Source: a virus (lineage: Duplodnaviria; Heunggongvirae; Uroviricota; Caudoviricetes). From it: a stretch of 29,317 bases of DNA. Below are positions 1 to 11,317 of the stretch, in pieces; the first letter of the stretch is position 1; the number at the start of each line of letters is the position of its first letter. Both the position numbers and the translations under genes were made by a program. Below the pieces are notes generated by a model that was given only the letters and a program-made list of their open reading frames with translations, had not been told where the DNA came from and ran no database searches. Location: positions 1 through 29,317 of the IMG/VR virus record IMGVR_UViG_2872164251_000007. One strand, given 5' to 3'.

Positions 1-858
1 ATGATGGCATTATTACTGGAGCCACTGCAGTTCACCTTTATGAGTCACGCACTGCTGATTTCACTGGTAGTTTCCATACCCTGTGCGCTGCTGTCGGTCT
101 TTCTGGTCCTGAAAGGTTGGGCACTGATGGGTGACGCGATGAGTCATGCGGTTTTTCCTGGCATCGTGCTTACCTGGATTCTGGGGTTACCTCTGGCTAC
201 AGGGGCATTCGTCGCCGGAGTATTCTGCGCGGTGGCGACGGGATACCTGAAAGACAACAGCCGAATCAAGCAAGATACAGTTATGGGGATTGTTTTTTCT
301 GGCATGTTTGCCGCAGGTCTGATCTTGTATATTGCAATTAAACCAGACGTACATCTTGACCATATTCTTTTCGGCGACATGCTCGGGATAACCATCGGCG
401 ATATAATCCAGACGGTGATTATTGCCGGGCTGGTTACACTTGTTATTAGCGTAAAATGGCGGGATTTTTTGCTGTTCAGCTTTGATTATCAACAGGCGCA
501 GGTAAGCGGTTTGCATACGAGATGGCTGCATTATGGGCTGCTGTGCATGGTTTCCCTGACCATTGTGGCGACGCTGAAAGCAGTAGGTATCATTCTCTCT
601 ATTTCTCTGCTCATTGCGCCTGGCGCCATTGCAGTACTCCTGACACAACGCTTTCATATTGCGCTCCTACTGGCGACTGGCATATCGGTAATAGTGTCAA
701 TGACTGGTGTCTGGCTGTCCTTTTTTATCGACAGCGCACCAGCTCCGACGATTGTCGTCTTATTCGCGGTCGTGTTCATCATGACGTTTACCGTTACCAG
801 CATCAACGCACGCACAAAGGGAAACGCCCATACACAGGATCTGTTATCACCCAATTAG
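1..858 (+). CDS. sitD: Metal (Mn/Fe) ABC transporter permease, SitD-like
   Basis: 285-aa ORF in the track; strongly hydrophobic multi-TM protein of the ABC-3 permease type; N-terminus matches my recollection of SitD from Shigella/pathogenic E. coli. ORF starts at base 1, so the 5' end may be clipped by the window. Confidence 0.7.
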   Translation: MMALLLEPLQFTFMSHALLISLVVSIPCALLSVFLVLKGWALMGDAMSHAVFPGIVLTWILGLPLATGAFVAGVFCAVATGYLKDNSRIKQDTVMGIVFSGMFAAGLILYIAIKPDVHLDHILFGDMLGITIGDIIQTVIIAGLVTLVISVKWRDFLLFSFDYQQAQVSGLHTRWLHYGLLCMVSLTIVATLKAVGIILSISLLIAPGAIAVLLTQRFHIALLLATGISVIVSMTGVWLSFFIDSAPAPTIVVLFAVVFIMTFTVTSINARTKGNAHTQDLLSPN

Positions 859-1205
859 CACAACATCCGAGGACAGCATCGTCCGCCAGCCTACAGAAGT
901 CCGGAAAGCCATGGAAGGTCGTTGGGAGGAGGTACGAATTCTATCATGCAAAAAATACGTAAAATCGATAACGCCTAGAAATCATTCAATACTCGCACTA
1001 TCGAAAGTTTACCAGCCAACCGCGGCACGTTCCTGCATACGACGTGCCGCAGCTTCTGTTATTCCACGATAAAATTCCTAACCGAATTCAAATCCTTCAG
1101 ACTATTCAGCTCTTCCTTCAGCTCCCGCTGACGGCGATAAATCTCATCGTTGCGATCGACCTGCGCCTGCACCGTAAGCGCCCCGAGAAGTACGTAGCGT
1201 AAGGA

Positions 1206-2807
1206 TTATTTTACAGACGAGAAGTTCCAGGGCAGCAGTTCATGCACTTGGTTCGACGGCCAGTCATTGAGCTTCTCGATCACTTCGCGCAACCAGTCCT
1301 CCGGCTCCACTTCGTTCTGTTTGCAGGTGACCAGCAGACTGTAGATGATCGCCGCACTTTCTCCTCCCTTGTCTGAGCCGAAAAAGAGATAATTTTTTCT
1401 TCCAACCGCCACCGATCGTAACGCGTTTTCACCGATGTTGTTGTCTATTTCCACCCAGCCGTCACGACAGAACTCGTTCAGCGCATTCCAGTGATTCAGG
1501 ATATAGTCGAACGCCTTCGCCATCTCCGCATGTTTCGACAGCGTTTTCCTCTGCAACTGTATCCAGTCGTACAACGACTGCATCAACTGGACGCTTCTGG
1601 CTTTTCTGACTGCAAGCCGTTCCTCTGCCGGACTGCCACGTATCTCCGCTTCTATGTCGTATAACTCTGCTATCCGTCTGAGCGCTTCCTGAGTCATTTC
1701 TGTCGGACGGCGCACATCCTCGTCATGGATTTTTCGGCGGGCGTGGGCCAGGCACCCGGCTTCCTTCACCCGGCCCGTTTCGTACAGTACGTTATAACCT
1801 GCATAGGCATCAGCCTGCAGTACGCCCTGATACTTTGCCAGGTGGAGCTGCGGATGTTCTCCTTTGCGATCTGCCGAATACGCGAACCAGACGGCTGCCG
1901 GCAGGGATGAACCCGCATTACGATCATCCCTGACGTATACCCACAGACGACCCGTTTTCGTCTTTCCGTTCCCCGGGGCCAGTACTTTCACCGGAGTGTC
2001 ATCTGCGTGCACCTTTCCTGCCTCCAGAACATAGTCATTCAGCGCTATATACAGAGGACGGAGTTTGTCTGCCATTTCTGATACCCAGCGCACCATGGTA
2101 TTACGGCTCAGCTCCACGCCCTGTCGCGCGTATATTTCTGACTGGCGATATAAAGGGATATGTTCCATATATTTGCTGACCAGGATCCGTGCAAGTAACC
2201 CTGCACTGGCATAACCGCGTTCGATCGGTTTAGGGGGAAGTGGTGCCTGAACGATGACATCACACCGGCTACAGGCCAGTTTGGGACGTATGGTTTCGAT
2301 AACTTTAAAGGCGGTATTAATGATATCCAGTTGCTCTGAGATTGTTTCCCCCATTTCTTTCAGAACACCTCCACAGGCCGGGCAACTGGTTTCAGCAGGC
2401 AGAAGGCGATGTGTCTCCCGGGGAAGTTCTGCCGGCAGCGGTTTTCGTGAAGATTTTCGTCCCGGGAATTCAGGCTTACTGGCGATCGGGTTTTCTGACG
2501 GGGGACTGGTGTCAGGTGAATCTGTGACTGACGATGCATCTTCCAGAAGATTTCTGGCTGTGTTCAGCCGGTTTTCCAGTTCCGACAGTCGTTTTTCTGC
2601 CTGTCGGATCTGATTTTCAAGCTTATGACGCTTTTTCTCTGAACTCTGGCCGAACAACATACGACGCAACCTGTCGAGTTGCGCTTTCAGCCGTTCAATT
2701 TCCTGCTCATAGCCCGCGACCTGACAGGCATACTGTCGAAGCCGACTCTGTTGCTTACGCAACATGGCTTTAAGCAGCTCAATATCATCGGGGAGTTCAT
2801 TGTTCAT
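1206..2807 (-). CDS. tnpC: IS66-family transposase TnpC (orf3)
   Basis: 533-aa ORF with N-terminal coiled-coil/leucine-zipper region and zinc-finger CxxC motifs typical of IS66 TnpC. Confidence 0.85.
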
Positions 2808-2826
2808 TCCCTTGTTTTATCACGGG

Positions 2827-3174
2827 TTATATCCGGATGCCAGGCCGTTCTGTCCGTTTGGGATGTTGCCACGCGATCCCCTCCAGTAGCATGGATAACT
2901 GAGCTGGCGTCAGGTGCACTTTCCCTTCCCGGGTCACCGGCCAGACGAAGCGGCCCCGTTCCAGGCGTTTGGCGAACAGGCATAACCCGTCACGATCGGC
3001 CCACAGTATTTTCACCATTTTGCCACTGCGGCCCCGGAAGACGAAGATATGCCCGGAGAACGGGTCATCTTTCAGCGTGTTCTGCACCTTCGAAGCCAGG
3101 CCATTGAAGCCACAACGCATATCTGTGATGCCAGCGATGATCCAGATTTTGGTACCGGTCGGCAGCGTTATCAT
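2827..3174 (-). CDS. tnpB: IS66-family TnpB (orf2)
   Basis: 115-aa ORF immediately upstream of tnpC and overlapping tnpA stop by 4 nt; size and sequence typical of IS66 Orf2. Confidence 0.8.
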   Translation of the reverse strand: MITLPTGTKIWIIAGITDMRCGFNGLASKVQNTLKDDPFSGHIFVFRGRSGKMVKILWADRDGLCLFAKRLERGRFVWPVTREGKVHLTPAQLSMLLEGIAWQHPKRTERPGIRI

Positions 3175-3845
3175 CGGATACCCCCTTTCATTTCGCGGAT
3201 TAGCGCCCGTAACAGTTCCGGAGTGAGAGGGTCAAACAGTTTTACCACACCTGATTTAAGATGCAGCTCGCACCGTGGGACGTTTCCGGGAGCCCCCTCA
3301 GGGCGCTCATCATGCTTGTTACGCCAGAAGGGATTTGTAACTGGTCTGGTCGGCTCCGGCGTATCAGTCAGTGCCACCGGGACAGGCATGCATTCCTGTA
3401 TGTCATCATCGCTCAGTAAGCCGTCCTCGTACTGGCTTTTCCATTTAAACAGCAGGTTATTATTGATATCGTGTTCTCTGGCGATCCGGGCAACAACAGC
3501 CCCAGGCTGTAACGCCTGCTTAGCCAGACGGACCTTAAATTCACGGCTATAGCTGGTTCGCCGTTCTTTTCGCCATGAGCCTTCTCTGATTTGAGGCTCT
3601 GTTAATTCCTTCTTTCTGTTGGCATAAAGGATGGCGTCAAGTTGAGCGAATGAAACTGAATCGGGCAATGGCCATGCGATACCGGATGCAAGAAATCGCT
3701 GAAAAAGCGTATGTATTGTGGAATGACTGAGACCCAGACGCTGAGCGATGGCCCGGATGGTCAGTTTATCTTCAAATCTTAAACGCAGGGCATCAGGCAA
3801 ATAAGAACGGAAGCAGGGAATATCTTTTGTTGTCTGGGAATTCAT
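3171..3845 (-). CDS. tnpA: IS66-family TnpA (orf1), HTH accessory protein
   Basis: 224-aa ORF at the 5' side of the tnpB/tnpC pair, inside the IS66-type inverted repeats. Confidence 0.7.
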   Translation of the reverse strand: MNSQTTKDIPCFRSYLPDALRLRFEDKLTIRAIAQRLGLSHSTIHTLFQRFLASGIAWPLPDSVSFAQLDAILYANRKKELTEPQIREGSWRKERRTSYSREFKVRLAKQALQPGAVVARIAREHDINNNLLFKWKSQYEDGLLSDDDIQECMPVPVALTDTPEPTRPVTNPFWRNKHDERPEGAPGNVPRCELHLKSGVVKLFDPLTPELLRALIREMKGGIR

Positions 3846-3927
3846 CGTTCGTGTCCATCAATATAGATGGGCGCGATTGTTGCCAGACAGGACAATTTTC
3901 ACAAGACGTCGCTGATGGGGCGCTTAC

Positions 3928-4212
3928 CGTTACTCTAAAGAGTTCAAAGCCGAAGCTGTCAGAACGGTTCTTGAAAATCAACTTTCGATCAGTGAAGGCG
4001 CTTCCCGATTATCCCTTCCTGAAGGCACTTTAGGACAATGGGTTACCGCCGCCAGAAAAGGGCTCGGTACTCCTGGTTCCCGCACGGTGGCTGAACTGGA
4101 ATCTGAAATTCTGCAACTGCGTAAGGCGTTAAATGAAGCTCGCCTTGAGCGAGATATATTAAAAAAAGCAACAGCGTATTTTGCACAGGAGTCGCTGAAA
4201 AATACGCGTTAA
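3928..4212 (+). pseudogene. IS600 orfA, 5'-truncated (no start codon)
   Basis: Open frame encoding YSKEFKAEAV...KNTR identical in register to orfA of the complete copy, but beginning at the junction with the IS66-family element. Confidence 0.75.
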
Positions 4213-4247
4213 TCGAACAATGGCGACAACAATTTCCCATTGAAGCG

Positions 4248-5066
4248 ATGTGTCAGGTATTTGGTGTATCCAGGAGCGGTTATTACAACTGGGTACAGCA
4301 TGAACCCTCAGACAGAAAACAAAGTGATGAGCGGCTAAAACTGGAGATTAAGGTGGCACATATCCGCACTCGCGAAACATATGGAACCCGGCGGCTCCAG
4401 ACGGAGCTGGCAGAGAATGGCATCATCGTTGGTCGTGACCGACTGGCACGTCTTCGTAAGGAGCTGAGGCTACGCTGTAAGCAGAAACGCAAGTTCAGAG
4501 CGACTACGAACCCGAACCACAATCTGCCAGTTGCGCCAAATCTGCTGAACCAGACGTTCGCTCCTACAGCACCAAATCAGGTCTGGGTGGCGGACCTGAC
4601 GTATGTTGCCACACAGGAGGGATGGTTGTACCTCGCTGGCATCAAAGATGTTTATACGTGTGAAATTGTCGGCTACGCCATGGGAGAGCGCATGACAAAA
4701 GAGCTGACAGGTAAAGCCCTGTTTATGGCGCTCAGGAGCCAGCGCCCACCTGCCGGGCTAATCCACCACTCTGATCGAGGTTCACAGTACTGCGCATACG
4801 ATTACCGGGTCATACAGGAGCAGTTTGGTCTGAAAACATCAATGTCGCGTAAAGGTAACTGTTACGACAACGCTCCGATGGAAAGCTTCTGGGGAACGCT
4901 GAAAAATGAGAGCCTGAGCCACTATCGTTTTAATAACCGGGATGAAGCCATCTCAGTAATACGGGAATACATTGAGATTTTCTACAATCGTCAGCGTCGT
5001 CACTCTCGTCTGGGGAATATCTCCCCGGCAGCCTTCAGGGAAAAATATCATCAGATGGCTGCTTAA
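4248..5066 (+). CDS. IS600 orfB (DDE transposase catalytic domain)
   Basis: 272-aa ORF identical to orfB of the complete IS600 copy; IS3-family DDE region; normally expressed as an OrfAB fusion by frameshifting. Confidence 0.85.
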   Translation: MCQVFGVSRSGYYNWVQHEPSDRKQSDERLKLEIKVAHIRTRETYGTRRLQTELAENGIIVGRDRLARLRKELRLRCKQKRKFRATTNPNHNLPVAPNLLNQTFAPTAPNQVWVADLTYVATQEGWLYLAGIKDVYTCEIVGYAMGERMTKELTGKALFMALRSQRPPAGLIHHSDRGSQYCAYDYRVIQEQFGLKTSMSRKGNCYDNAPMESFWGTLKNESLSHYRFNNRDEAISVIREYIEIFYNRQRRHSRLGNISPAAFREKYHQMAA

Positions 5067-5109
5067 AAAAAGAACAAATGGTAGTGTCCGCTATTGCCAG
5101 TACACCTCA

Positions 5110-5297
5110 CCAGGCATGATGTCTTTTCCGGTGTGTCCGTGACATACAGTCCATACACCAATGATATCTTTGTATGGTATGTAGCTCACACCTTCCAGAC
5201 CATCGTTACCACCTGGGCCAGTGATTAACACAGATGCTATAGCAACAGCCCCGCCACCAATAGCAACTGCAACAGCCTTGCGTAATGATGGCGACAT
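5110..5297 (-). pseudogene. Phage endolysin (lysozyme with SAR-type N-terminal anchor), truncated after about 62 codons by IS600
   Basis: N-terminus [28 protein letters not shown]...[17 protein letters not shown] matches lambdoid (phage-21-type) SAR endolysins from memory; the reading frame runs into the IS600 right end at 5109. Confidence 0.75.
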
Positions 5298-5321
5298 TAT
5301 TCACCTCTCGCAGCCTTACGC

Positions 5322-5501
5322 TTATCTTCTCTTATTTTGCGTCAGATAAGTCAGAAGCCCCAGAAGCAGACTTCCCAGCACACCAATCGCAGCCCACTGT
5401 GATGGACTGACCTGATCCAACCACTGCAAAAACCAGTAGCCGGCACTGCCGGCGGCGGTGCCGTAGGCAATGCCCGTTGAAATTTTGTCCATGGATTTCA
5501 T
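5322..5501 (-). pseudogene. Phage holin (S21-type small holin), probably frameshifted near its 3' end
   Basis: [62 protein letters not shown]; a different frame across 5297-5340 encodes [13 protein letters not shown], which is the holin C-terminus I recall, ending in TAATG overlap with the endolysin start. RBS GGAGGTGAGG upstream. Confidence 0.6.
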
Positions 5502-5793
5502 AGCCTCACCTCCGCAAATAACGGATGGCGTAGTTTTACACTGAGAAATGAAAGGGATTTGAAAAGAAAAAAACGCAAAAGCGGGCGAAACGATATATAC
5601 AGTAAGGAAAGCACTCTATCCAACAAACCACCCACAGTTAATCGGAATAAAAGCAGAGTGCTTATGAATGATCGCACGCCCGAAGGTTAGTATTTCTGCA
5701 CAGCAATTTTGCAAAAAAAGGCGATCATTCATAACTTAAACGTCTTTCAGTCACTCCGGGATTTCCCATCATCGCAGACTGAAAGACTCTGAC

Positions 5794-5810
5794 TGGAGCG
5801 GGCAGCGGGA
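5794..5810. repeat. Candidate attR: 17-bp direct repeat of the tRNA-Gly 3' end
   Basis: TGGAGCGGGCAGCGGGA here versus TGGAGCGGGCGAAGGGA at 14705-14721 (10-bp perfect block, 14/17 overall); this copy restores correct acceptor/T-stem pairing if placed on the tRNA. Confidence 0.45.
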
Positions 5811-6058
5811 GCCTACGACAAATCGAAGACAACCAGCTAACCTATTGTTTCTTAAAGACAGGTGAATCCAGTTGGTTGTAGTGATAGTCACACATTTAGA
5901 GATAGAAGGTCAAGACTTGAAGCACGTAATATTCCCTCTAAAGGAATAGAACTCACGGTCTGACTACCCGGCCCTTTTGGTCTGGCTGAAGTGGCACACT
6001 GAATTTGGCCACCTGAACAGAGGTGATATGCTCACCTCAGAACAACACAGGTGCTCCA

Positions 6059-7227
<1,169 letters not shown>

Positions 7228-7309
7228 CCACTTCAGGCTCAGGTCAGGCTATGGGGGCTTTTGGCTCGCTCTTTATATTAGATGAGGTCTCACATTTTTC
7301 AGTCAAAAC

Positions 7310-7390
7310 TCATCGTCTAATAGCCCATAGCCAGACCACCAGTCCCAGCTTTAGCAGGAAGACCACGAGATAGACTTTGTGTAGGTCCAT
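7310..7390 (-). CDS. Small hydrophobic peptide (26 aa), candidate membrane peptide
   Basis: ATG preceded by AGGAGG at 5-nt spacing; product MDLHKVYLVVFLLKLGLVVWLWAIRR; last ORF of the minus-strand gene array. Below the ORF-track size cutoff. Confidence 0.25.
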   Translation of the reverse strand: MDLHKVYLVVFLLKLGLVVWLWAIRR

Positions 7391-7485
7391 TTGGCCCTCC
7401 TACTTTCTGTATTCACGAACTAGATTACTAGTACAAAATAAAGGCCAGACATCCAGTTCGGAAGTCTGACCAATAGTCGTTATTG

Positions 7486-8475
7486 TTAGTTAGCTTCTTT
7501 AGTGAAGCTCAGGCGTTTGACTACAGGCAGGACAGCAGTAGCCGAGCCAGTACCCATCTTGATGGTCGTAGCAGCTTCAGCTACAACAAACACCTTGCCG
7601 AGAATCTCAAGGTCGTGAGACTGGGAGTCTCCATCACGTGAAAGGACCACAGTAATGCTCTCGCCATCGTGACGGAAGCAACCGAAGCTCAGAGCCGTAA
7701 AACGCTTAGCCATCATGAACACGCCACGGTCTTCACCGTTGTAATAGGCGACGTCAGTCCCCAGCATATCGACGATAGCGTCTTCACCACCGAAGCCCTG
7801 CTTAGCAGCCAGACGGGAGAGAGCCTTGAGGTGTGACTCATGGGCGATAATGCCGTAGTCAGAAACCTCAGAACCGAAAGAAGACTCCGTGTTCTCGTAC
7901 AGGGCATCCATGATAGCGTCAGCCTTAGCGGTCAGGCTACCAGTCAGGGCCGGAAGTTCTACGGTCTTCAGCAGCTTTGAGGACTCCAGCACGTCAACCA
8001 TCTTAGAGTTAATGGTACGAATCACGTTATCGCAGATGTTCAGTGCGTCCTGCTGGAGCGTCCCCTGAGTGAAACCAGTGGTCGACTTCTGGTCCCAAAG
8101 CTTTGTTTGGTGAGACACGAGGATCGCCTGTTCAATCGGCTCAACGGTGATTTCAGCGCCAGACGGAGCGGTCACAACTTCAGGTCGCTTACCACCACGG
8201 ACAGGGACCAGCACAGAGCGGTCAGCCAGAGTGTGAGCAATGATTGGAGTCGGTAAGCTGTTACGGGTCGGCAGGACTTCTACAGGGAACGGGATGTTAT
8301 CTTGAGCGTCTTTAAGTACACCGTTCAGCATAGCCTTAACAGTCTTAGCTAACTGGAGGGCATAGACCTGAGGGTCGGCGTTAGTCGGAAGGCCCTCATT
8401 AACCTGAAGGTTGTCGTTGTCGGTGATATGAACAGGCTCAATGCCAAACTGGAAAGCGTTTTTAGTCATATTCAT
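7486..8475 (-). CDS. Hypothetical protein, 329 aa (island cargo; function unknown)
   Basis: Long ORF with AAGGAGA RBS about 10 nt upstream; co-oriented and tightly packed with the upstream 163-aa ORF; I cannot assign a family by eye. Confidence 0.6.
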   Translation of the reverse strand: MNMTKNAFQFGIEPVHITDNDNLQVNEGLPTNADPQVYALQLAKTVKAMLNGVLKDAQDNIPFPVEVLPTRNSLPTPIIAHTLADRSVLVPVRGGKRPEVVTAPSGAEITVEPIEQAILVSHQTKLWDQKSTTGFTQGTLQQDALNICDNVIRTINSKMVDVLESSKLLKTVELPALTGSLTAKADAIMDALYENTESSFGSEVSDYGIIAHESHLKALSRLAAKQGFGGEDAIVDMLGTDVAYYNGEDRGVFMMAKRFTALSFGCFRHDGESITVVLSRDGDSQSHDLEILGKVFVVAEAATTIKMGTGSATAVLPVVKRLSFTKEAN

Positions 8476-8558
8476 TATAATTAATCTCCTTGAGTCAAAT
8501 ACTTGAAGTCCCTAACAGGCAGTCAGGGACCGTGTGTTCTCAGATGAGGGACGCTTGC

Positions 8559-9050
8559 TTACAAGCTGTCCATCCAGTTACCGCCTGACTCAAGGTCAGC
8601 GACGATAGCGGCACGTGAGCGACCAGCGGAATGAGTAGCGCTGCGGAGGTTTTCACCATAGGTCCGGCGTTCAGCTTTGACCTGTTCGCGGCGCTGTAGC
8701 TCTTTTTGCCATTCGTCTTCGGTCATGAACATTTCGCGGGTACGCTCTTTCTGAGACGCTAGCTCTTTAGCGATACGCTCAGCTTCAGCTCGTTTGTTCA
8801 TCTGGCGGCGTTGGTAGGCGGTCATCAGGTCATTACTGAAGAAGTTACCAATGGTCACGCCAGCTTCAGCCAGAGCTTCCAGTAACTCCATCGCCTCGCG
8901 GCTGGTGGACGGTAAGCCTGACAGGTAGCCCGGAATGAGGGTCTTGATAGCGAGCGACAACGGATAGGACTGACCGTCCAGACTCACAGTGTTTTCATAA
9001 AGGTTGATGTCGGTGACTGACAGCTTCCAGTTGTTGTTGTTGAACATCAT
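8559..9050 (-). CDS. Hypothetical protein, 163 aa, with charged coiled-coil-like C-terminal half
   Basis: ORF with AGGAGA RBS 7 nt upstream of ATG; C-terminal half rich in E/R/K/Q. Confidence 0.6.
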   Translation of the reverse strand: MMFNNNNWKLSVTDINLYENTVSLDGQSYPLSLAIKTLIPGYLSGLPSTSREAMELLEALAEAGVTIGNFFSNDLMTAYQRRQMNKRAEAERIAKELASQKERTREMFMTEDEWQKELQRREQVKAERRTYGENLRSATHSAGRSRAAIVADLESGGNWMDSL

Positions 9051-9169
9051 AGGTAATTCTCCTCTTGAGAGTTGAGACTATCGGTATCGCAGGCACAGTA
9101 AGGCCTACGGGTCTCCCCGCATCGGTCATCTCAAAAGGTGTTTAAATTAGGTATTGAGTAGGTGAGCTA

Positions 9170-9346
9170 CTAACGGTTAAGCGGCAGTTTCATAGCGACC
9201 AGTTGGGCTATTAGCTCGTCTCGGGATTGGTGCTGGCGGGTCTCATCTTCCGGGTCTAGACCAAGCTCTCTGAGGAGGACTTCAGTCCGGTAGCCACGGT
9301 AACGGAGAGTCATGCGCCCCTCAGGTGTGCGCGGGTCAATCATCAT
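9170..9346 (-). CDS. Small ORF, 58 aa
   Basis: Starts ATGATG one nucleotide after the Rha-family stop, GGAGGG about 7 nt upstream; product MMIDPRTPEGRMTLRYRGYRTEVLLRELGLDPEDETRQHQSRDELIAQLVAMKLPLNR. Below the ORF-track cutoff. Confidence 0.3.
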   Translation of the reverse strand: MMIDPRTPEGRMTLRYRGYRTEVLLRELGLDPEDETRQHQSRDELIAQLVAMKLPLNR

Positions 9347-10103
9347 CTTAGATTCCCTCCACCTTACCGGATTGTGCCAGCTTCAGGAGGTGCTCTTGCT
9401 TCTGCTGGTCGGTGCCAGTGAATGCAATAAGGATGCCTCGCATCTTGTCAACCATCTCAGGCTTACCGAAGACCTCCAGCCCCTTAGCGTTGAACCGGAA
9501 GTTATACCCACCTGCTGAGAACTTCTGGTCTGACGGCTTAATGATACGAAAGCAGTCGGAATACTTCGGATTTACAGACCACTCGTTACTGATTGGGTTC
9601 TTACGAAAGAGGCCACGATGCTGGAGAAGTGCGGTCATTAGCTTCTGAGCGGGCAGACCATAGGTTTTGCAGTAGTCGCCCCAAGTCACGCCTCGGCGGT
9701 TAGCGGACTGAATGGCTGCTCGCTTCTTCTGGTCTTCCAGTTGAAGGACTCGACGCTCTAACGTCTGAATATGGTCGTAACACTTGGCGCGGAGGTGAAC
9801 GGAATAGCCAGCGACCAGAATGAAAGTATGCTTACGGTCGAGACGATACAGCGGCTGCTGTTTCCCCTGCGCGTTTAGATAGACATCTTCAGTCACCCCG
9901 ATATGACTGCTCAGTTTTGAGCACTGCTCAGTTTTGAGCGCGTTAAGCTCCTCAGCCATATTGCGAATATCACGCAGGACATTTCGGTGCTCCTTGCCTG
10001 TCAGCTCAGCAATTTCAACTGAGGTCATGGAGACAAGCTGGTCGAGGTTTGAACCGCCCCGGGAATCCTGGAGACTAAACTTCCTGAGAAAGAGGTAAAC
10101 AGG

Positions 10104-10430
10104 ATGACTAAAAATACTCGTTTTTCCCCCGAAGTCCGTCAACGGGCAGTCCGTATGGTTCTGGAAAGTCAGGGCGAATATGACTCACAATGGGCGACAA
10201 TTTGTTCCATTGCTCCAAAGATTGGCTGTACGCCGGAGACTCTGCGTGTCTGGGTTCGCCAGCATGAGCGGGATACCGGGGGCGGTGATGGAGGGCTCAC
10301 CACCGCTGAACGTCAGCGTCTGAAAGAGCTGGAGCGTGAAAATCGTGAACTGCGCCGCAGTAACGATATCCTTCGCCAGGCTTCCGCTTATTTTGCGAAG
10401 GCGGAGTTCGACCGCCTCTGGAAAAAATGA
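10104..10430 (+). CDS. IS629 orfA
   Basis: 108-aa [24 protein letters not shown]... with HTH and leucine-zipper features. Confidence 0.85.
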
Positions 10431-11317
10431 TGCCACTGCTGGATAAGCTGCGTGAGCAGTACGGGGTCGGACCGCTATGCAGCGAACTGCATATTGCCCC
10501 GTCAACGTATTACCACTGTCAGCAACAGCGACATCATCCGGATAAACGCAGTGCCCGTGCGCAGCGCGATGACTGGCTGAAGAAAGAGATACAGCGCGTA
10601 TACGATGAAAATCACAAGGTATACGGTGTGCGTAAAGTCTGGCGTCAGTTGTTACGGGAAGGTATCAGAGTGGCCAGATGCACTGTGGCACGTCTCATGG
10701 CGGTTATGGGACTTGCCGGTGTTCTCCGGGGTAAAAAGGTCCGTACGACCATCAGCCGGAAAGCCGTTGCCGCAGGCGACCGCGTAAACCGTCAGTTCGT
10801 GGCAGAACGACCTGACCAGCTGTGGGTGGCTGATTTTACTTACGTCAGCACATGGCAGGGCTTCGTCTATGTGGCGTTCATCATTGATGTGTTTGCCGGA
10901 TGCATCGTGGGGTGGCGGGTCTCATCGTCCATGGAAACGACATTCGTGCTGGATGCACTGGAGCAGGCGTTATGGGCCCGTCGACCGTCCGGCACGGTCC
11001 ATCACAGTGATAAAGGTTCTCAGTATGTATCGCTGGCCTACACACAGCGGCTTAAGGAAGCCGGATTACTGGCATCAACAGGAAGTACAGGCGACTCGTA
11101 TGACAACGCGATGGCGGAGAGCATCAATGGTCTTTACAAAGCGGAGGTAATACACCGTAAGAGCTGGAAAAACCGTGCAGAAGTGGAACTGGCCACACTA
11201 ACGTGGGTGGACTGGTATAACAATCGACGATTGCTGGAAAGGCTGGGCCACATCCCTCCGGCAGAAGCAGAAAAAGCTTATTATGCTTCCATCGGAAACG
11301 ATGATCTGGCAGCCTGA
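10427..11317 (+). CDS. IS629 orfB (DDE transposase domain)
   Basis: 296-aa ORF overlapping orfA end; IS3-family DDE region. Confidence 0.85.

Follow-up and report, generated by a model that had tools for sequence, protein, structure and literature searches.

Apparent decay of a phage 21-like lysis cassette in Shigella flexneri: a frameshifted holin gene and an IS600-truncated endolysin gene

The stretch of DNA analysed here (29,317 nucleotides, IMG/VR record IMGVR_UViG_2872164251_000007; hereafter the window) contains two short adjoining open reading frames (ORFs), one resembling a holin and the other the beginning of an endolysin, which raises the question of whether they still form a working lysis cassette and, if they do not, what has befallen them. 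A sequence-only reading of the locus had proposed that the cassette was inactivated twice, by a frameshift in the holin gene and by an IS600 element that cut the endolysin gene short. Our analyses indicate that the locus is very probably a remnant, about 700 bp long, from the late-operon lysis cassette (S-R-Rz/Rz1) that a phage 21/phi467-like lambdoid prophage once carried, now stranded between IS elements in the S. flexneri chromosome and no longer lytic. The locus is real and biologically ordinary; nothing about it is new in kind, and its sequences are already in GenBank. A literature search on this lesion (S. flexneri prophage, IS600, holin) returned general reviews of prophage grounding and no report of the lesion itself. 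The features discussed below are collected in Table 1.

Table 1. Positions of the lysis cassette remnant and its neighbours in the window
Feature	Position	Strand	Basis
IS66-family element, three ORFs, GTAAGCGCCCC terminal repeats	1174-3927	-	Pfam DDE_Tnp_IS66, TnpB_IS66, HTH_Tnp_1; inverted repeat
IS600 (IS3 family), right end intact at 5109, ~80 bp of left end missing	3928-5109	+	99.8% identity to PGAP IS600, terminal repeat, full copy in L003
5' remnant of R21/RrrD-type SAR endolysin gene (R'), 62 codons + 2 nt	5110-5297	-	BLASTP against R21, PDB 3HDE/4ZPU, Pfam PF00959
Ancestral holin tail coding sequence, out of frame	5297-5338	-	Translation; intact sister allele
Frameshifted S21-type class II holin (pinholin) gene S, 59 aa	5322-5501	-	ORF list, Pfam PF04971, PHROG holin families, alignments
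11-bp deletion junction	5339/5340	-	Alignments with phage 21, phi467, L003
Untranslated leader from phage tRNA cluster to S, phi467-homologous	5502-5793	-	Alignment
Orphan 3' end of phage-borne tRNA-Gly (TCCCGCTGCCCGCTCCA)	5794-5812	-	phi467 tRNA-Gly alignment, repeat search
Integrative island, ~8.9 kb including two IS insertions	5813-14704	-	Pfam/PHROG scans, tRNA scan
IS911, simple insertion	5987-7235	+	99.2% identity to PGAP IS911; ends read
Q-like late antiterminator gene (DUF1133 / Phage_antitermQ)	18398-19072	-	Pfam

The short holin gene and its distribution

The holin gene was recognized from its match to Pfam family PF04971 (Phage_holin_2_1, 'Bacteriophage P21 holin S'), which scored 86.6 bits against a curated cut-off of 26 and aligned residues 5-54 to profile positions 1-50 of 64; a PDB search gave no solved relative. 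Three-frame translation of the minus strand over 5085-5510 showed that the ORF reads MKSMDK...TYLTQNKRR before its stop codon. The beginning of the protein is unaltered: MKSMDK is identical to S21, and the dual-start motif MKSM (Met1-Lys-Ser-Met4), which gives rise to an antiholin and a holin form, is intact. Both transmembrane domains (TMDs), the Gly/Ala-rich TMD1 and the pore-lining TMD2, can be traced as uncharged runs, the first covering residues 7-28 and the second 30-56. The loop is kept, and so is the TMD2 hydrophobic core (36-54, 19 residues), but TMD2 has lost LYF at its cytoplasmic end. The native charged tail, NLYFKIRED(K/R)RKAARGE, is not in frame, and QNKRR stands in its place.

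Alignment with phage 21, phi467 and an intact S. flexneri allele (CP054892.1, L003) showed a single clean 11-column gap (AATCTGTAT/CTT), the window running from CTGACG straight into CAAAAT where the phages have CTGAC(A)AATCTGTA(C/T)TTCAAAAT. The 11 bp gone, AATCTGTATTT, are missing between these two motifs, and the reading frame is shifted after Thr54 to give the 59-aa product ending in QNKRR. As the sequence-only reading had described, the holin tail persists in the wrong frame: its stop codon (5297-5299) overlaps the endolysin ATG (5295-5297) as TAATG. That reading's estimate of a deletion of about 11 bp turned out to be exact, and the S21 C-terminus that it had assumed was correct, the intact S. 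flexneri allele encoding a 71-aa holin that is 94% identical to S21-71 and has the same kind of tail. The deletion also uncouples the stop of S from the start of R.

How the deletion arose was also considered. No microhomology was found on either side of the junction, where G and C border AATCTGTATTT, and slippage was rejected as a cause, the nearby ATCTG...ATCTG repeat being one that would remove 9 bp, not 11. Because no repeat flanks the junction, the same deletion is unlikely to have recurred independently. Ribosomal frameshifting was likewise rejected as a means of restoring the tail; a +1 shift would be needed at ACG-CAA-AAU, and inspection by eye revealed no frameshift-prone motif there.

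An 11-bp gap in a single record might be an artefact of sequencing or assembly, a possibility that owes its place here to having been raised beforehand by the sequence-only reading. It is highly improbable, as the identical deletion occurs in at least five other, independent S. flexneri assemblies (CP032513.1, AFGW01000067, AKMX01000027, CABVWR010000306 and AAVDWN010000357, plus UDVF01000380), and the loss of 11 bp from non-repetitive sequence is atypical of a homopolymer-type error. The copies in CP032513.1 (L005), AFGW01000067 (L007/L013) and AKMX01000027 (L015) match the window with 100% identity across 746 bp, and two short contigs (L016 and L017) are identical to it over their own lengths. 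A sequencing error can thus be set aside.

The other possibility is that short holins ending in QNKRR are a natural length variant of S21, in which nothing was deleted and the longer form is the derived one. The Pfam match, which spans only the first 50 of the 64 profile positions, would suit such a variant, but the canonical tail, with its TAATG overlap, can still be read in the out-of-frame remnant, and the distribution of the allele does not fit. None of 5,426 complete E. coli genomes and none of 50,697 phage records contained a 50-mer spanning the deletion junction, and a SNP-tolerant junction pattern was likewise missing from one genome per GTDB species and from IMG/VR, whereas the intact pattern was found in at least 120 IMG/VR contigs. 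By exact-sequence look-up, the 59-aa protein is recorded from S. flexneri only; both it and the 68-aa ORF that runs from the endolysin into IS600 exist as exact public sequences, named 'holin' and 'lysozyme' in S. flexneri. The intact alleles in CP054892.1 and CP026098.1 (L004), together with L008, L009 and L011, have zero mismatches to the window over 746 bp besides the 11-bp gap. With the junction absent from E. coli, phages and IMG/VR, the short form does not behave as a normal holin variant, and the idea that it is one is almost certainly wrong. As far as these sequence data show, the lesion is derived and restricted to S. flexneri.

The endolysin stub and its surroundings

BLASTP aligned the endolysin stub R' to residues 1-61 of the 165-aa R21 with 92% identity, and a PDB search matched it to the solved structures 3HDE (R21) and 4ZPU (RrrD). 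The weakly hydrophobic, Gly/Ala-rich signal-anchor-release (SAR) domain is present, residues 1-30 aligning to R21 and 3HDE with 92% identity, and by alignment to R21 the 62-residue remnant also retains E35, D44 and T50, which we take to be the catalytic Glu-Asp-Thr residues of R21. The complete lysozyme domain of ~165 aa is not present: 62 of 165 codons are left, about 103 C-terminal codons are missing and the Phage_lysozyme family (PF00959) is matched only at profile positions 3-29 of 125. Homology to R ends at 5110, after 62 codons and GG, and IS600 sits in codon 63, so that the earlier figure of about 62 codons before the IS600 right end can be stated as exactly 62 codons and 2 nt. The frame stays open into IS600, which yields the 68-aa ORF (5091-5297). 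Because about 100 residues of the lysozyme fold are missing, the stub presumably cannot fold into a lysozyme and would be inactive.

The identity of IS600 is based on 99.8% identity to the PGAP entry 'IS3-like element IS600 family transposase'; its right terminal repeat, TGAGGTGTACTGGCAATAGC, lies at 5090-5109 and its orfB, with rve domains in Pfam, at 4248-5066. The element is not complete, since its left ~80 bp have been replaced by the adjoining IS66-family element, which truncates it at 3927/3928. In the full IS600 copy of L003 the far-side flank is unmatched (TGG vs GTC) and there is no 3-bp target duplication, which points to a deletion or rearrangement after insertion. We rejected a simple IS600 insertion with the rest of R on its far side: the 3' part of R was absent from the window, as were Rz/Rz1, the HNH gene and terS/terminase, which come after R in phi467 and L014, and no target duplication was seen.

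On the other side of the cassette, the ribosome-binding site of S, GGAGGTGAGG, is intact in the leader. A local promoter for S was considered and rejected, a consensus scan of 5050-6050 having given no promoter-like site. Homology to phi467 upstream of S stops within the last 17-19 nt of tRNA-Gly (window ~5794-5812), and this orphan tRNA-Gly 3' end is the right attachment site left by an integrative island. The island encodes a 536-aa tyrosine integrase adjoining the tRNA, a Rha/Ant-like gene and ORFs of 202, 163 and 329 aa, for which Pfam, PHROGs, NCBIfam and PADLOC gave no match. It also holds two IS elements, IS911 and an IS3-family (IS629-like) element. IS911 lies within the island, 486 bp upstream of the S start, between target duplications of GGC (5984-5986 and 7236-7238), and is not at this site in L003. 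The same island, ~6.4 kb without the two IS elements, occupies the chromosomal glyU of E. coli CFSAN064035, and in the window a paralogous tRNA gene of the phage seems to have served it as a secondary attachment site. By inserting in the phage tRNA-Gly, the island has parted S from the late promoter region; upstream, the first gene of late regulation is the Q-like gene, ~13 kb from S. Also between Q and S are four tRNA genes (a cluster of tRNA-Gly(tcc), tRNA-Thr, tRNA-Arg and tRNA-Met at 14705-15015), an IS91-family element, an IS600 fragment (15753-16346) and an antirepressor gene.

Several further features of the island and its tRNA genes were observed. In E. coli CFSAN064035, the glyU island adjoins ETT2 type III secretion genes (compare L138, 4811-11258). 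The slot that the island occupies in the window, between the phage tRNA cluster and S, is where Stx phages carry stx. The 329-aa ORF (7486-8475) and the 163-aa ORF (8559-9050), both on the minus strand, are oriented like the late operon; their DNA occurs in about 310 of the 5,426 complete E. coli genomes, and the annotation there calls them hypothetical proteins. The reconstituted tRNA-Gly gene at 14705-14779 (minus strand) is a hybrid of a phage-type 5' part and a 3' end of glyU type, which reads CCCTTCGCCCGCTCCA rather than CCCGCTGCCCGCTCCA. Judged by eye, this end brings in two mismatches, one within the T stem and the other at the base of the acceptor stem; ARAGORN still calls the gene, but the tRNA may be impaired.

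The density of IS elements in the window as a whole is very high. Besides IS911 and the IS66-family element, there are three IS600 copies or fragments (the one next to R', the IS600 fragment between Q and S and a third at 27618-28881), two further IS3-family members (an element at 10104-11317, matching IS629 of Stx phages, and a transposase with an rve domain at 26249-27154), an IS91-family element at 16755-17987 and an IS1 transposase at 20166-20669. The left edge of the window (1-858) encodes an ABC-3 family permease.

Taken together, the cassette has lost its link to the late promoter, carries a frameshift in S and a truncation in R, and has no spanins. Of the proposal that it was inactivated twice, both lesions stand, in place and in size. 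The count is too low, since at least five more disruptions come on top of these two, and the holin knockout is better worded as a presumption. Without endolysin and spanins, the cassette would be unable to lyse cells, whatever the pore-forming ability of the short holin. Both ORFs are best labelled as pseudogene remnants of an S21/R21 cassette, in a prophage that presumably cannot lyse its host.

Residual holin activity and the order of events

The frameshift would be expected to kill the holin protein. However, both TMDs and a basic KRR end are kept, so that the published truncation data for S21 do not prove the protein dead. The 59-aa product might instead be a still-active pinholin, the frameshift amounting to a tail swap, which would depolarise the membrane if transcribed; we consider this unlikely. 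The net charge of the tail is +3 in both the short allele (QNKRR) and the native one with its 17-residue tail, the uncharged TMD2 run is 27 residues in the short form and 29 in the intact one, and the ribosome-binding site and dual-start motif are unharmed. In a truncation series of S21-68, the C-terminus was 'largely dispensable for assembly' down to K56, and a basic residue (Lys/Arg) was needed at position 56 as a membrane anchor (bioRxiv 10.1101/2021.04.20.440580). S21-68 cut back to K56 thus largely keeps pore formation, Arg can substitute for K56, and in S68 numbering the Shigella variant has 56 residues and ends in Arg. The truncations tested, however, retained NLYF, where the window has the polar and charged QNKR, a swap that shortens TMD2 at its cytoplasmic end. 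Furthermore, the allele occurred in no phage or other prophage in the phage, E. coli, GTDB and IMG/VR searches and so gives no sign of being a selected form, and expression would have to do without a nearby promoter-like site, Q/pR' lying ~13 kb and several IS elements away. Dead or active, the short form provides a natural experiment on how much of its C-terminus a pinholin can do without.

Other copies of the locus bear on the order in which the lesions arose. The genome CP032513.1 carries, besides the copy identical to the window, a second S-R'::IS600::IS66 copy at 1.26 Mb (L006), which corresponds to window positions 3701-5810. This second copy is 93% identical to the window upstream of ~5403 and nearly identical downstream, with 37 differences upstream of 5403 and only two (5324 and 5187) between 5403 and the IS600 junction. 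This pattern indicates that the junction between R' and IS600 is old and was spread or homogenised by IS600-anchored recombination, and the presence of two copies in one genome suggests either an IS-anchored duplication or gene conversion between prophage remnants. At its IS600/IS66 junction, L006 keeps 11 more bases of IS600 (GAAAAACCCAA). The R'-IS600 junction would be the older of the two lesions, being common to the intact-holin sister allele and the diverged L006. The 11-bp deletion probably came later, on an L003-type background, and, judged from these alignments, would be recent, lineage-restricted and neutral; it would have hit a cassette already dead through IS600.

One assembly departs from this order. 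In UDVF01000380 (GCA_900486275.1; L014), IS911 and the deletion are present but are followed by an uninterrupted 165-aa endolysin gene and then by Rz, HNH and terS. If real, this arrangement conflicts with IS600 insertion first and deletion second, and needs recombination between prophage copies. It may be a real recombinant or a short-read chimera; a chimera is suspected because the scaffold is interrupted by stretches of N and because the one base at which it departs from the window, 5187 G>C, is shared with the paralogous L006. Together with the other haplotypes, L014 makes up a four-gamete pattern.

A broader reading has two separate parts: some lineages of S. flexneri would have retained the 59/56-aa holin as a working pinholin that depolarises the membrane on its own, uncoupled from any endolysin, and the R'::IS600 junction, identical in at least three genomic contexts, would have been homogenised by IS600-anchored gene conversion. 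We regard this combination as decidedly unlikely; if it were true, the new KRR anchor would sit where S21 truncations need a basic residue. Stepwise decay remains our preferred reading, and the locus offers a clean, datable case of it in a Shigella prophage. The 11-bp deletion is polymorphic among copies that are otherwise identical, and it could be used to mark lineages.

Comparison with known lysis cassettes and decayed prophages

The S21/R21-type families are the best-studied pair of pinholin and SAR endolysin. The cassette in the window is like that of phage 21, in which S21 (antiholin S21-71 and pinholin S21-68) is followed by R21, in its gene order, its MKSM start and its TAATG overlap. 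In contrast to phage 21, S in the window is without the 11 bp and the native tail, R ends at codon 62, Rz/Rz1 are missing and the cassette no longer adjoins Q/pR'. Megablast against phage records gave 92% identity to phi467 and 86% to phage 21, both with S, R and Rz in that order. The closest DNA relatives are Escherichia phage phi467, an Stx1 phage, and prophages of EIEC and other E. coli with the arrangement tRNA-Thr, tRNA-Gly, S, rrrD, Rz. These are 92-94% identical to the window over the tRNA-Gly 3' end, the leader, S and the 5' part of R, and their tRNAs lie directly upstream of S, as in the layout of the window. All have an intact 71-aa holin, a 165-aa endolysin and Rz, and none has the deletion junction.

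Decay of this sort has precedents. Lambdoid prophages of Shigella are well known to be grounded and eroded by IS elements (PMC6379469, citing McDonough and Butterton 1999). An example is the stx-bearing remnant of S. dysenteriae 1 (McDonough and Butterton 1999, as cited in PMC6379469), which, like the prophage in the window, is a lambdoid prophage immobilised and worn down by IS insertion and by deletion or rearrangement that IS elements mediate, with IS600 and IS911 among the agents. The window differs from that remnant in species and locus and has no toxin genes, and neither its 11-bp deletion in S nor its IS600 at codon 63 of R turned up in the literature searched. A further relative is the cryptic prophage DLP12 of E. 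coli K-12, whose essD-rrrD-rzpD genes form the same S21/R21-type cassette and whose RrrD (4ZPU) matches R'. The lysis genes of DLP12 are reportedly assigned a role in E. coli biofilm formation in the title of a 2011 article by Toba et al. They are full-length, whereas the cassette in the window is truncated.
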